Below, piece by piece: positions 20,239 through 23,835 of a stretch of DNA of 33,625 bases. This DNA comes from Dehalococcoides mccartyi (GTDB taxonomy: Bacteria; Chloroflexota; Dehalococcoidia; UBA2979): contig CAMDAY010000003.1 of assembly GCA_945888895.1 (NCBI GenBank), positions 1 through 33,625 of the forward strand. Reading direction: 5' to 3'. Position 1 is the stretch's first letter. Each line of letters starts with the position of its first letter. The translations under genes were made by a program, and so were the position numbers. The notes below the pieces were generated by a model. That model did no database searches. It saw nothing but the letters and a program-made list of their open reading frames with translations, and was not told where the DNA came from.

Positions 20239-21399
20239 CTAGCGGGTCGCGCGGTACCTGTGGATGAGTCGTGTCGCGGCGGCCGTCGTGTACTGCGCAG
20301 GGTGCGCGATTGCGGCGGCGCGATCGGCGGGCGTGGGAGCGAGCGCCTCGGCGTCGAGGACGCCCGCAGGCAGTCCTTCGACGATCCCGGCAACCGCGAT
20401 GCACGGCGTGCCGGCGGTAGCCGCAAGGGCCGCGACGTGCGCCACGGACTTGCCGTAGCCCGTCTGACCGTCCATTGCGCCCTCGCCGGTGACCACCAGG
20501 TCTGCCGACTCGACTGCGGCGCGCAGGCCGATCGCGTCCGCGACGAGCGCCGCGCCGGACTCGATGCGACCTTGGCGACACGCCGCGAGGAGGCCCGTCG
20601 GGATGCCGCCGCCCGCGCCCGCGCCGGGCTGGCTCGCCACGTCGACATCGAGATCCACGCGGAGCCGCTCGGCCCAGCGGGCGAGGGCGGCGTTGAGGGC
20701 GGCCGCCTGCCAGTCCGTGACTCCCTTTTGCGCGCCGTAGACGGCGGTCGCGCCGGCCGCGCCGGCCGCGCCGAGCAGCGGGTTCAGCACGTCCACGGCG
20801 ATCCGCAGGTCGAGGTCGCGCACGGCATCCTCGAGGTCTGCCTCGACGCGCGCGAGGCTCACGAGGGCGAGGCCGCCACGCGGGACCGGCGCACCAGCGG
20901 GGTCGAACAGCCGCAGGCCGAGCACGCTCGCCGCGCCCGCACCGCCGTCGTTTGTGCCGGTGCCCCCGACGCCGACGATCACCTGACGTGCGCCGCTGGC
21001 GATCGCGTGGCGGATCTGCTCGCCGACGCCGGCGCTCGAAGCGCGCGCCGGGTCGCGCTGGTCGACGGGCGTCAGCAGCAGCCCGGCGGCGCTCGCTGCC
21101 TCGATCACCGCGAGCGTCGGCTCACCGGGGCGTTCGAGGAGCGCGTAGGTCGCCTCGACCGGATCGCCGAGCGGGCCGGTGACCACGTGCCGCACGAGGC
21201 GCGCGCCCGTGGCCTGCGCGACGATCGCGACCGTTCCCGGCCCGCCGTCCGCCATCGGCAGTTCGATGACCTCGGCATCCGGCAGCACTGCGCGTACGCC
21301 CGCGGCGATCGCGGAGGCAGCTTCGACCGGGTCGAGCGTGCCCTTGAACTCCTGCGGACAGACGAGGACGCGGCGGATGGGTCGCGACACCTCGGTCAA
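20239..21399 (-). CDS. glxK: Glycerate kinase (GlxK/GarK family)
   Basis: CPQEFKGTL, PMADGGPGT, GVGGTGTNDGGAG, VYGAQKG, GAGAGGG and LVVTGEG..QT.YGK motifs. Start is TTG 21399 (overlapping the upstream stop) or GTG 21390. Confidence 0.9.
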   Translation of the reverse strand: MTEVSRPIRRVLVCPQEFKGTLDPVEAASAIAAGVRAVLPDAEVIELPMADGGPGTVAIVAQATGARLVRHVVTGPLGDPVEATYALLERPGEPTLAVIEAASAAGLLLTPVDQRDPARASSAGVGEQIRHAIASGARQVIVGVGGTGTNDGGAGAASVLGLRLFDPAGAPVPRGGLALVSLARVEADLEDAVRDLDLRIAVDVLNPLLGAAGAAGATAVYGAQKGVTDWQAAALNAALARWAERLRVDLDVDVASQPGAGAGGGIPTGLLAACRQGRIESGAALVADAIGLRAAVESADLVVTGEGAMDGQTGYGKSVAHVAALAATAGTPCIAVAGIVEGLPAGVLDAEALAPTPADRAAAIAHPAQYTTAAATRLIHRYRATR

Positions 21400-21647
21400 T
21401 CGAGGCCCCAGCGCCAGCCGAAGGCGACCTGGAGCACGGCGCGGATCAACGTGGTCAGGATGAAGAGCAGCAGCACCAGCTCGATCCGGCGGAACAAGCG
21501 CTTCACCGCCTGGATTCGCCCCGACTGCTGAAGGCGGGCGTTCCCTTGCCGCATCAAGTCGGCCCCGCCGGGGAACATGCGGACGAACGCGGTCCACGCT
21601 GCCAGCGATAGTCCGAGGCTCACCACCCAGAGGATCAGAGTTCTCAC
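21396..21647 (-). CDS. Small membrane protein (83 aa, two predicted TM segments)
   Basis: GGGAGG SD and TAGGAT -10-like element upstream, two hydrophobic stretches, stop coupled to glxK start. Confidence 0.7.
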   Translation of the reverse strand: MRTLILWVVSLGLSLAAWTAFVRMFPGGADLMRQGNARLQQSGRIQAVKRLFRRIELVLLLFILTTLIRAVLQVAFGWRWGLD

Positions 21648-21681
21648 GCGATGCGCCTCCCGTCCTGCATCCTACCGATGG

Positions 21682-21737
21682 TTGACTAGCACAAGCGTTC
21701 TCTTATACACTCAAACCAACACTAGAACGCTTGTTCT
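21682..21737 (+). promoter_or_regulatory. SigmaA-type promoter with two LexA (SOS) boxes
   Basis: -35 TTGACT (21682-87) and -10 TATACA/TACACT (21704-11). AGCAC-AAGC-GTTCT (21688-21701) lies in the spacer and perfect AGAAC-GCTT-GTTCT (21724-37) lies downstream, matching the GAAC-N4-GTTC LexA box. Confidence 0.85.
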
Positions 21738-21750
21738 CATAAAGGCTCCC

Positions 21751-21927
21751 ATGACGACCGACACTGCGACCGCCATCTCTGACCCCGCGGCCGGGGTCGC
21801 CGTGCCTCGACGCCGCCGTCAATGGACCTACGCCGGCCCACGCTGCCCGCAGTGCGCCGGCCCGCTCGTCTTCGGCGAGGGCTGCAGCGTCTGCCCCGTA
21901 TGTGGTCATTCCTCCTGCACGATCTAG
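21751..21927 (+). CDS. 58-aa six-cysteine zinc-ribbon protein resembling the NrdJ C-terminal tail
   Basis: CPQCAGPLVFGEGCSVCPVCGHSSC; AAGG before ATG 21751; lies directly behind the promoter above. Confidence 0.75.
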   Translation: MTTDTATAISDPAAGVAVPRRRRQWTYAGPRCPQCAGPLVFGEGCSVCPVCGHSSCTI

Positions 21928-22060
21928 CGGCGGTGTCTCATTCGGGCGCCTGACGGGCGAATCCACAGGCTGACCGGCCCGCGTTTACTTATGCGCGTTC
22001 GACCCCCCTTGGATCGCTTCGTATACTTCGCCCCTATCGCCAAGAGCGCGGGGGGCGAGC

Positions 22061-22882
22061 ATGGTGGCTGGAACCGGTACTGATCTGCGCGCATTTACAC
22101 AGCGCGTCCGACGGCATGTGGTCGAGATGGTCTACGGGGCGCAGTCGGGCCACATCGGTGGCTCCATGTCGTCGACCGAGATTCTCGCGGTGCTCTATGG
22201 CCGCATCATGCGGCACGACCCGAAGCGCCCCGGCTGGGTGGAGCGTGACCGCTTCATCATGAGCAAGGGCCACTGCACCCCCGTGCAGTACGCCACCCTT
22301 GCCGAGAGCGGCTACTTCCCGGTGGACGAGCTCTCCACCTTCCGCAAGAAGGGCACGCGCCTCCAGGGCCACTCCGTCCTCGGCAAGCCCGAGGGGGTCG
22401 AGAACTCCGCGGGTGCGCTGGGCATGGGCCTGTCGTTCGGCCTCGGCATCCGGCTCGGCATGCGCCTCAGCAACATCGACGCGCACGTGTACGTGCTGAT
22501 GGGCGACGGCGAGCAGGACGAGGGACAGGTGTGGGAGGCCGCGATGGCCGCCTCCCACCACCGCGTCGACCGCCTGGTTGCGATCATCGACCGCAACGGC
22601 ATCCAGAACGACGACTTCACCGCGGCGACCATGCGCACCGAGCCGCTGGACGAGAAGTACCGCGCCTTCGGCTGGGAAGTCCGCGCCGGCATCGACGGGC
22701 ACAACCTCGAGGCCGTCGAAGAAGCCCTCGCGTGGGCGCGCGACGTGCGCGGCAAGCCGGCGCTGGTGATCTTCGACACCGTGAAGGGGAAGGGTGTCTC
22801 CTTCATGGAAAACAACCCGAACTTCCACGGTGCCGCCCCCAGCGCGGAGCAGTTCGCGCGCGCCATGGAGGAATTGGCCTGA
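22061..22882 (+). CDS. Transketolase, N-terminal (TPP-binding) subunit
   Basis: SGHIGGSMS, RDRFIMSKGH, LQGH, GDGEQDEGQVWEA..N and TVKGKG motifs. TATACT at 22022. Confidence 0.93.
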   Translation: MVAGTGTDLRAFTQRVRRHVVEMVYGAQSGHIGGSMSSTEILAVLYGRIMRHDPKRPGWVERDRFIMSKGHCTPVQYATLAESGYFPVDELSTFRKKGTRLQGHSVLGKPEGVENSAGALGMGLSFGLGIRLGMRLSNIDAHVYVLMGDGEQDEGQVWEAAMAASHHRVDRLVAIIDRNGIQNDDFTAATMRTEPLDEKYRAFGWEVRAGIDGHNLEAVEEALAWARDVRGKPALVIFDTVKGKGVSFMENNPNFHGAAPSAEQFARAMEELA

Positions 22883-23835
22883 TGACGACCACCAACCTGC
22901 CCGCCGCCGCCACGCGCGAGGCGCTCGGCCCCACGCTCGTGCGCCTGCAGCAGAACGGCGCCAACATCGTGGTCGTCGATGCCGACCTCGGGAAGTCGAC
23001 GTCCGCGCGCACCTTCCGCGACGCGTTCCCGGAGCGCTTCTTCACCTTCGGCGTCGCCGAGCAGAACATGATCTCCGCCGCCGGTGGCCTCGCGACGCTC
23101 GGTCACACCGTCATCGCATCGACGTTCGCGGTGTTCGCGGAGCACGCGTTCGATCAGCTCCGCATGTCGGTCGCACAGCCCAAGCTCAATGTGAAGGTCG
23201 TCGCCAGCCACGGCGGTGTCTCCACCGGCGAGGACGGCGCGTCCGCACAGTCCGTGGAGGACTACGCGCTGTTCTCCTCGCTCGTGAACTTCACCGTGTG
23301 CGTGCCGGCCGATGTCGTCGAAGCAGAGGCGATGGTCGCCGCAGCGGTCGCGACCCCCGGCCCGTGGTACATCCGCACCGGGCGCCCGAAGATCCCCGTC
23401 ATCTACACAGACGGCCCGCGCTTCCAGGTCGGCAAGGCCGACATGCTGCGCGAGGGCACGGACGTGACGATCGTCGCGTGCGGCCTCCTTGTCGAGCGCT
23501 CGCTCCGCGCGGCCGAGGCGCTCGAGGCCAGCGGCATCTCCGCACGTGTGCTGAACATGGGCACGATCCGGCCCCTCGACGTCGCGGCCCTCGAGGCTGC
23601 GGCGAAGGACACCGGCGCGATCGTCGTCGCGGAGGAGCACCTGACGCACTCCGGCCTCGGCGCGATGTGCGCGCAGGCGATCGCCGCGACCACGCAGCCC
23701 GTCCCGATGGAGTTTGTCGGTGTGCAGTCCCGCTACGGCGAGTCCGCGACGTGGGACGAGGTTCTGGAGATCATGGGCCTCACCGCGGACGGCGTCGAAG
23801 CCGCCGCGCGCAAGGTCGTCGCCCGCAAGCGCTAG
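22882..23835 (+). CDS. Transketolase, C-terminal (pyrimidine-binding) subunit
   Basis: ATREA, VDADLGKST, GVAEQNM, GEDGASAQ, YIRTGR and EEH..SGLG motifs. TGATG overlap with the N-terminal subunit. Confidence 0.93.
   Translation: MTTTNLPAAATREALGPTLVRLQQNGANIVVVDADLGKSTSARTFRDAFPERFFTFGVAEQNMISAAGGLATLGHTVIASTFAVFAEHAFDQLRMSVAQPKLNVKVVASHGGVSTGEDGASAQSVEDYALFSSLVNFTVCVPADVVEAEAMVAAAVATPGPWYIRTGRPKIPVIYTDGPRFQVGKADMLREGTDVTIVACGLLVERSLRAAEALEASGISARVLNMGTIRPLDVAALEAAAKDTGAIVVAEEHLTHSGLGAMCAQAIAATTQPVPMEFVGVQSRYGESATWDEVLEIMGLTADGVEAAARKVVARKR

Follow-up and report, generated by a model that had tools for sequence, protein, structure and literature searches.

We analyzed a 33,625-nucleotide stretch of DNA, hereafter the window, which is contig C3 (CAMDAY010000003.1, positions 1 to 33,625 of the forward strand) of the Dehalococcoides mccartyi assembly GCA_945888895.1, a genome of 2.0 Mb in 236 contigs with 69% G+C and an estimated completeness of 84%. 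Its plus strand carries a small gene at 21751-21927, stop codon included, that runs from an ATG at 21751 to a TAG at 21925-21927 and encodes a microprotein of 58 amino acids (aa), MTTDTATAISDPAAGVAVPRRRRQWTYAGPRCPQCAGPLVFGEGCSVCPVCGHSSCTI. The frame is preceded by an in-frame stop, with a divergent gene beyond. The protein ends in CPQC-AGPLVFG-EGC-SV-CPVCG-HSS-C-TI, in agreement with an earlier note made from the sequence alone, which had pointed out an open reading frame (ORF) with a CPQC-x7-EGC-xx-CPVCG-xxx-C end and had likened this end to the tail of the class II ribonucleotide reductase (RNR) NrdJ. Here we describe the family to which this gene belongs and the LexA-type boxes that precede it, and we weigh what a free copy of an RNR tail might do during the SOS response.

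Upstream of the gene, the same strand shows a putative sigma-70-like promoter at 21682-21711, with a -35 element TTGACT (21682-21687), an 18-nt spacer and a -10 element TACACT (21706-21711); TATACA with a 16-nt spacer is an alternative -10. The promoter matches at 9 of 12 positions, and the 650-nt region holds two such sites against 0.1 expected from shuffles. One LexA-type box, AGCACAAGCGTTCT (box 1, 21688-21701), fills the promoter spacer, and a second, AGAACGCTTGTTCT (box 2, 21724-21737), lies in the 5' leader and has perfect palindromic arms. Of the promoter with two LexA-type boxes proposed in the earlier note, both boxes are present; box 1, however, has one core mismatch, and the -10 reads TACACT. 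At one mismatch or fewer to AGAAC-N4-GTTCT, these two boxes are the only matches in the window (0.30 expected), and they form an 11-bp inverted repeat of each other. A probable ribosome-binding site, AAAGG (21741-21745, plus strand), stands 5 nt ahead of the ATG.

A word-indexed search of proteins of 31-102 aa recovered stand-alone homologues of 55-72 aa, which made up 29 of the 31 candidates; the few that carried names were Dehalococcoidia or Chloroflexota proteins from metagenome-assembled genomes (MAGs). In an alignment of 30 close members (A1), the columns G29, C32, P33, C35, AGPLVFGEGC, C48, P49, C51, G52, S54 and C56 were invariant, including the EGC motif and the terminal cysteine whose conservation had been left to be checked. 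When 1.84 billion cluster representatives were searched exhaustively with HMMER, 38 proteins were recovered at E<=0.001, 35 of which were 38-142 aa in length; the other three were long repetitive proteins with many weak stretches. Scanning one genome per species across 185,579 species with a sequence pattern gave 76 candidates and 64 confirmed loci, and the record titles of 59 of these named Dehalococcoid- or Chloroflexi/Chloroflexota-type MAGs. The core lay in a small open frame in 62 of the 64 loci; locus L070 was the tail of a 761-aa NrdJ, and L071 lacked an intact core. Across the 25-codon cysteine core of 63 loci, the mean pairwise difference was 0.135, 0.10 and 0.385 at codon positions 1, 2 and 3, so that the third position varied about three times as much as the first two, and the differing codon pairs comprised 15690 synonymous and 7816 non-synonymous cases. 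This pattern and the excess of synonymous changes indicate that selection acts on the protein sequence of the microprotein. By these comparisons, the 58-aa ORF is a real gene and a member of a conserved stand-alone family.

In a class sample of 301 genomes, the profile matched 235, most of the matches being to tails of NrdJs whose open frames span 800-940 aa. Open frames shorter than 250 aa accounted for at least 56 matches from 55 genomes, counted by eye among the 150 matches listed; one of these genomes (G249) is flagged as unpublished. Within the window's own family, 15 of the 16 sampled genomes had a profile match.

Three segments can be distinguished in the microprotein. The first 19 residues (21751-21807, plus strand) are rich in T, A and P and predicted to be disordered, with a predicted local distance difference test (pLDDT) score below 50 for residues 1-19; in A1, about the first 20 residues vary freely. 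A basic patch, RRRR at residues 20-23 (21808-21819, plus strand), follows; its family consensus is R-R-x-R-R, and R20 and R23 are nearly invariant, being conserved in at least 90% of A1. The zinc-finger tip (21835-21924, plus strand) comprises G29, C32, C35, C45, C48, C51, C56 and the loop AGPLVFGEGC, all invariant A1 columns. Its six cysteines sit at the very C-terminus, the protein ending two residues after C56. AlphaFold2, run on A1, gave a mean pLDDT of 66.9 and about 85 for residues 30-58, where it predicted the short beta hairpins of a zinc ribbon. A Pfam scan of the microprotein found no family above cut-off, PF12637 included, and neither Pfam nor NCBIfam scans found a thioredoxin or glutaredoxin family. 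Searching the Protein Data Bank (PDB) by sequence with A1 gave 17 matches, of which not even the best (E 0.04) was meaningful, and nothing but unnamed clusters, at 0.93, came from a search of the ESM Atlas.

The resemblance to the NrdJ tail proposed in the earlier note was borne out by several comparisons. Residues 25-56 matched positions 727-758 of the 759 positions of the NCBIfam model NF006417 (B12-dependent RNR) with E 7.6e-7, far under the whole-protein cut-off, as expected of a fragment. In a tblastn search of the genome itself, the microprotein matched the tail of the NrdJ on contig C189 (E 2e-5). Among proteins longer than 126 aa, 61 of 8000 candidates matched at E<=0.01, and 58 of these carry PF02867 and are NrdJs matched at their C-terminal tips; of the remaining three, P0070 is a C-terminal fragment of an NrdJ, P0076 a piece of 129 aa that has no annotation, and P0069 an AraC-type call. 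When A1 was compared by hhalign, profile against profile, with 14 NrdJ tails taken from the source genome and its relatives, the probability was 97.5% (E 5.5e-12). The cysteine spacing C-x2-C-x9-C-x2-C-x2-C-x4-C is identical in the microprotein and in the C189 tail, and even the motif PLVFGEGC recurs in some NrdJ tails (P0071, P0080), for example in ...CPDCGQPLVFGEGCNICPNCGWSKCH of a 762-aa enzyme. On this evidence from sequence comparison, the microprotein is homologous, over its last ~30 residues, to the six-cysteine zinc-finger tip of NrdJ.

The metagenomic gene call P0069 (302 aa) starts from an AraC-type regulator with cupin and helix-turn-helix domains, to which the sequence of a whole microprotein is joined in frame. 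Instead of a genuine fusion, this may reflect read-through in gene calling on a contig of 1752 bp.

The tip has been characterized in Stackebrandtia nassauensis NrdJ (PMC5704485). The cysteines C920, C923, C933, C936, C939 and C945 of that enzyme are spaced x2, x9, x2, x2 and x5. Four of them are proposed to bind zinc, and C933 and C945 to shuttle electrons (PMC5704485). Turnover with tris(2-carboxyethyl)phosphine (TCEP) requires all six, and electron transfer between subunits is described as possible, and Loderer et al. (2017) report that a physiological reductant of the tip was not found (PMC5704485). The zinc finger is present in 71% of dimeric class II enzymes, according to Burnim et al. 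(2022; PMC9669993). By analogy with these roles (PMC5704485), C32, C35, C48 and C51 of the microprotein would bind zinc, and C45 and C56 would form a redox pair.

We then considered the regulation of the gene. The genome encodes both LexA (lexA on contig C124) and RecA, and its perfect GAAC-N4-GTTC sites number 27, where composition would predict 16.6. Those that lie outside coding sequence, in A+T-richer surroundings, precede recA, ruvB, a DinB-type polymerase gene and an ImuB-like gene, and one-mismatch boxes stand upstream of lexA and uvrB. The perfect 14-mer AGAAC-N4-GTTCT occurs only three times genome-wide, as box 2 and upstream of recA and of the ImuB-like gene. In a ranking of the 2.0-Mb genome by a weight matrix trained on 94 boxes from related loci, with the window excluded, box 2 came first (26.3 bits), the recA box second (24.3) and box 1 third (23.2), the matrix being biased to the flanks of the microprotein family.

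Boxes upstream of the gene were also found throughout the family. We counted boxes in the 300 nt upstream of the cysteine core, whichever start codon had been assigned, in the 58 loci with at least 200 nt of upstream sequence; set aside were the NrdJ locus L070, the core-less L071, and four loci whose upstream sequence was too short (L009, L024, L037 and L062), although L037 nonetheless shows one box. A LexA-type box was present in 58 of the 58 evaluable loci, with a perfect core in 49 and two or more boxes in 47, against 14, 1 and 1 of 910 control 300-nt windows from the same loci. The stand-alone homologues with upstream boxes that the earlier note asked to be sought thus exist. A count that depended on the assigned starts gave 55 of 61 against 14 of 1996; it under-counts, some starts having been set too far upstream. 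The organism's own motif thus lies over the promoter, and the operator is conserved at the orthologues of other species, both features of a LexA regulon.

An alternative is that the boxes serve another regulator, such as NrdR, or that the inverted repeat arose by chance or has a structural origin, which would place the gene outside the SOS response. The 11-bp inverted repeat formed by the two boxes would suit a regulator that recognizes paired boxes, as NrdR does, and NrdR is encoded in the genome. Against this, GAAC-N4-GTTC also precedes recA, lexA, uvrB, ruvB and Y-family polymerase genes here; across the 58 loci the arms stay while the N4 spacers and flanks vary; and the long nrdJ, which would be the expected NrdR target, lacks such a box. 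We consider this alternative very improbable. LexA control of the microprotein gene is strongly supported by these sequence features, and we infer that LexA would bind the boxes and that DNA damage would induce the gene.

Further LexA-type boxes were noted elsewhere in the source genome (G000). Two of them, AAGAACAATCGTTCGT and CAAACGTATGTTCTTA, lie 20 nt apart in non-coding DNA at C68:7949-7989 (L087:1950-1990), between the gene for ribosomal protein L9 and an opposite-strand DUF1801 gene. Another, the one-mismatch box CGAACGCTCGTGCT (19.3 bits), is found at C97:3331 (L121) in the interval that separates greA from the gene of an HtrA-like protease; this box may represent either an extension of the regulon or a chance occurrence.

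The earlier note had stated that no RNR gene is adjacent and had asked whether the genome's nrdJ keeps its own tail. Matches to PF02867 were confined to contigs C67 and C189, so that contig C3 contains no RNR gene. A tblastn search with a short NrdJ as query found no match, and hence no decayed nrdJ, on C3. The reading of the gene as a pseudogene remnant was rejected on the basis that the contig has no nrdJ-like sequence and that the family is conserved. C67 encodes a long NrdJ (about 1200 aa) with the tip CEECG...C..C..CG.....C, and C189 encodes a short NrdJ, cut at the contig end, with the tip CPDCG...C..C..CG....C. Since both enzymes keep their tips, the microprotein replaces no lost tail here and is not simply one half of a split gene; complementation of a tail-less NrdJ in this genome was rejected for the same reason. 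Each of five complete related genomes likewise encodes a long form (or, in G005, one of 957 aa) and a shorter NrdJ.

The short nrdJ itself is preceded by LexA-type boxes in most of the related loci surveyed. We surveyed 16 unique loci, 13 from the window's family and three from two related clades (L091-L103, L073, L080 and L081), and found a box 45-70 nt before the start in 15 of them, nine perfect and six with one core mismatch; only L096 had none. The long nrdJ of the source genome has no such box upstream. Judging from these boxes, a class II reductase appears to be an SOS gene beside the free tip in this family. In the source genome, the short nrdJ is represented by C189:3307-4056 (L089), its 5' part and promoter being unassembled. 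The short nrdJ of G295, a genome of the same genus, is likewise cut by a contig end (C50:26-235, L109), its 5' part also unassembled. In G000, the short NrdJ lacks a domain of ~150 residues that lies between barrel and tip in its relatives.

A clade of seven genomes (G003, G004 and G315-G319; loci L073, L080 and L115-L119) has a short NrdJ that stops just past the first C-x-x-C. These proteins end in ...CP(A/E)C(G/R)L(P/A)xx-stop, for example CPACGLPAH, and the other four cysteines are gone. In G003 and G004 (L073, L080), a convergent gene follows the shortened NrdJ directly. The shortened tail is a stable natural form and not an assembly error. All seven genomes retain the six-cysteine microprotein.

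We propose that the microprotein is a damage-induced redox tip that acts in trans and aids the re-reduction of NrdJ, a reading to which we assign a probability of roughly 0.4. In the undamaged cell, LexA bound to two operators, of which one falls within the spacer of the promoter and the other within the leader, would keep the gene off. RecA-stimulated cleavage of LexA would then allow the microprotein to be made along with RecA, UvrB, RuvB and the translesion polymerases and, in many relatives, together with a spare NrdJ from a LexA-boxed gene. In the predicted protein, a four-cysteine zinc knuckle would carry the cysteine pair behind the basic patch and the disordered N-terminus. The free tip would act in trans on NrdJ re-reduction, most likely as an additional diffusible electron shuttle, and by reducing the active-site disulfide it would provide the deoxynucleoside triphosphates (dNTPs) that repair and translesion synthesis call for in greater amounts. 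The scheme is conjectural in its assumptions on zinc binding, on C45 and C56 as a redox pair, on the contact with NrdJ and on the direction of the effect. We favor the shuttle because 58 of the 61 longer relatives are NrdJs matched at their tips, because C45 and C56, which a plain zinc ribbon would not need, are invariant in the close family, and because the same lineage has an NrdJ under LexA-type boxes. In addition, where C45 and C56 are lost among distant homologues, they are lost jointly and never singly (6 of the 28 representatives inspected of the 38), as fits a working pair.

Several observations weigh against a role as a shuttle for NrdJ. A tethered tail has a large advantage in local concentration over a free tip, and both NrdJs of the genome have complete tips, leaving no obvious need for another. 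According to Loderer et al. (PMC5704485), a separately expressed cysteine-rich domain (CRD) did not restore TCEP activity to a truncated NrdJ, although the CRD was barely soluble. The microprotein is present in G215, G185 and G256, where only a long NrdJ was found by PF02867; this NrdJ is box-less, and the microprotein is therefore not tied to a LexA-boxed short NrdJ. Similarly, in G005, which encodes the microprotein, a box was found ahead of neither nrdJ gene. The high rank of the boxes owes something to a matrix trained on this gene family's boxes, which favors its flanks. One co-folding job, which counts neither for nor against binding, combined residues 1-720 of a short NrdJ from a complete related genome (the tip of this NrdJ being removed; alignment A2 of 25 rows) with the cognate 83-aa microprotein (alignment A3 of 41 rows) and Zn. 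It gave ipSAE scores of 0.03 and 0.02 against a mark of 0.32; the partner's own fold was uncertain, and controls were not run. Finally, the basic patch has no counterpart in the aligned NrdJ tails, and six distant stand-alone homologues (P0041, P0046, P0047, P0048, P0057 and P0068) keep the zinc cysteines and the G-E-G loop but lack C45 and C56, which fits binding better than shuttling.

The last two observations also bear on two other explanations. The unmatched R-R-x-R-R patch would fit the recruitment of an ancestral NrdJ tip, as a small redox-sensitive zinc ribbon, to an SOS role unrelated to RNR, which we regard as somewhat unlikely. Its targets might be DNA, RNA or an SOS protein (RecA, LexA, a polymerase or a division protein), or it might serve as a thiol or zinc switch, a list that we hold just as tentatively. 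The loop AGPLVFGEGC is far more conserved among the microproteins than in the NrdJ tails of the same genomes, hinting at a different and stricter partner, and the gene is found with varied NrdJ repertoires, a loose association. The structure search is also compatible with such a role: a Foldseek search of the PDB returned 161 matches, every one at a non-significant E of 0.9 or more and every one a generic zinc ribbon, with many nucleic-acid binders among them. On the other hand, the longer relatives are almost all NrdJs, the non-zinc cysteine pair that defines the RNR tip has been kept, and the co-occurring LexA-boxed nrdJ makes a link to RNR more economical. Moreover, no neighbor suggests another partner, glycerate kinase and a split transketolase being the only syntenic genes.

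The six homologues without the redox cysteines are compatible with pure binding. The free tip might then be a brake: it would compete for the docking site, either with the tail of NrdJ itself or with the reductant of NrdJ, and thereby slow re-reduction and dNTP synthesis. We think this unlikely, and its use as a replication checkpoint or pool-balancing device would be as improbable. The same homology and LexA evidence would serve a brake as well as a shuttle. Two operators, one of them the best-scoring in the genome, suggest tight repression, which would suit a product that does harm during normal growth. In yeast, Sml1 reportedly targets the regeneration step at the C-terminus of R1, to judge from the title of reference 27 in PMC5704485. 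A mere blocker, however, would not need C45 and C56, which are invariant in the 30 close members and in the 63 locus cores. The SOS response generally raises repair capacity, and with the short nrdJ itself apparently SOS-induced, a co-induced inhibitor would be odd.

Returning to the shuttle, a broader version of it would join the two LexA-boxed genes. Dehalococcoidia-class Chloroflexota may have a two-part SOS module for dNTP supply, in which a LexA-repressed spare class II reductase is accompanied by a LexA-repressed free tip as relay or gate, although we hold this extension to be doubtful. The tip would relay electrons between NrdJ's physiological reductant and the active site, or gate that step, and damage would thereby retune turnover.

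Among known systems, the closest is the NrdJ zinc-finger tip itself. This tip (PMC5704485, PMC9669993) shares with the microprotein the six cysteines, their spacing and the G-C / C-x-x-C-G-x-S-x-C signature. Homology between the two is detectable, and the microprotein, too, is predicted to fold as a small zinc ribbon. The NrdJ tip, however, ends an enzyme of 600-1300 aa, whereas the microprotein is a separate product of 58 aa. The NrdJ domain has an IscU-like body, which the microprotein lacks (there is no PF12637 match, and 58 aa would be too short), and the microprotein has a conserved basic patch and LexA-type operators.

NrdJb, of the Pseudomonas aeruginosa type NrdJa+b, resembles the microprotein in being an RNR tail encoded as its own gene with the same zinc finger, and it is described as comprising the whole IscU-like domain together with the finger and as pairing with a tail-less NrdJa (PMC5704485, PMC9669993). 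Unlike NrdJb, the microprotein is a finger only, with no IscU-like (TSCPD-type) body and with residues 1-19 predicted to be disordered. Furthermore, nrdJb adjoins nrdJa, whereas the microprotein gene has no RNR gene nearby, the NrdJs of its genome keep their tails, and its control is of the LexA type.

NrdH-redoxin is a dedicated electron donor of RNR. In the reading that we favor, the microprotein would be comparable to NrdH and the thioredoxins, as a small cysteine-pair protein feeding electrons to RNR; unlike them, it is predicted to be a zinc ribbon with no thioredoxin fold, and its homology lies with the acceptor tail and not with these donors. The yeast proteins Sml1, Spd1 and Hug1 are small disordered RNR regulators of the DNA-damage checkpoint. 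The microprotein is likewise small, partly disordered and damage-linked, but it has no sequence relation to these proteins, which act on RNR and belong to a eukaryotic class I system as opposed to a bacterial class II one. Sml1 is also destroyed upon damage, whereas the microprotein gene would be switched on. SulA, DinI, YneA and SidA are short, lineage-restricted SOS effectors under strong LexA operators. We found no similarity of these effectors to the microprotein, which has no membrane segment and whose only homology is to an enzyme tail.

RNRs have reportedly been placed in the LexA regulon of Patescibacteria. The earlier note knew of no described system of this kind. Our searches of full-text literature, which covered article text, likewise found no stand-alone RNR tip and no LexA-controlled nrdJ in Chloroflexota. 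The nearest known kinds are a split-off RNR tail and a small SOS effector, and there is a realistic chance that the microprotein represents a new regulatory principle. An SOS-boxed free tip suggests an undescribed tuning of the supply of DNA building blocks during repair; if the two-part module is real, it would bring the first case of an RNR tail that acts in trans under SOS control and would offer a handle on how tails of this type are reduced in vivo. If the link holds, DNA damage in these bacteria would reach dNTP supply through a copied piece of the enzyme, and not solely by way of the enzyme's transcription. For most of the small LexA targets that are specific to a lineage, no function is known; here the sequence indicates a target enzyme. 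A stand-alone tip of naturally soluble size would be a ready experimental object, given that the isolated NrdJ domain is described as hard to handle (PMC5704485). Even without a link to RNR, the microproteins form a family in which LexA-type boxes are universal, and the bacterial class that carries them is widespread in fresh water.

On the minus strand, a glycerate kinase gene (20239-21597) diverges from the microprotein gene, and a transketolase split into N and C halves is encoded downstream by separate genes on the plus strand (22061-22882 and 22900-23835). The interval that separates the microprotein promoter from glycerate kinase has, on the minus strand, an 83-aa hydrophobic ORF (21396-21647) that is perhaps no true gene; as a candidate for a conserved divergent SOS partner it was rejected, tblastn finding no match in the 64 related loci (L008-L071). 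An Rfam scan of the window found no family that reached its gathering score. A search of sequencing runs returned 20 rows that hold part of the stretch, five of them with at least half of its words, all labelled as lake or freshwater metagenomes and five recorded as RNA. When contigs of four RNA runs were compared with 21300-22500, the microprotein and its promoter were not covered, contig gaps carrying no weight against expression; starting at 22055 or 22074, the six matching pieces took in the transketolase gene only.

A separate promoter-like site, at 21999-22027, belongs to the transketolase. In view of this site and of the different neighbors seen in other relatives, an obligatory operon with the transketolase was judged unlikely. 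Among the 64 related loci, the divergent upstream neighbor is glycerate kinase in 33, and a split transketolase lies downstream in about 27; at the remaining loci, aldo-keto reductase, luciferase-like or radical-SAM genes are the neighbors. This variation indicates that the unit of boxes and gene moves independently of its surroundings. The flanking arrangement of the window, with glycerate kinase on one side and the split transketolase on the other, was seen again in about half of the related loci.

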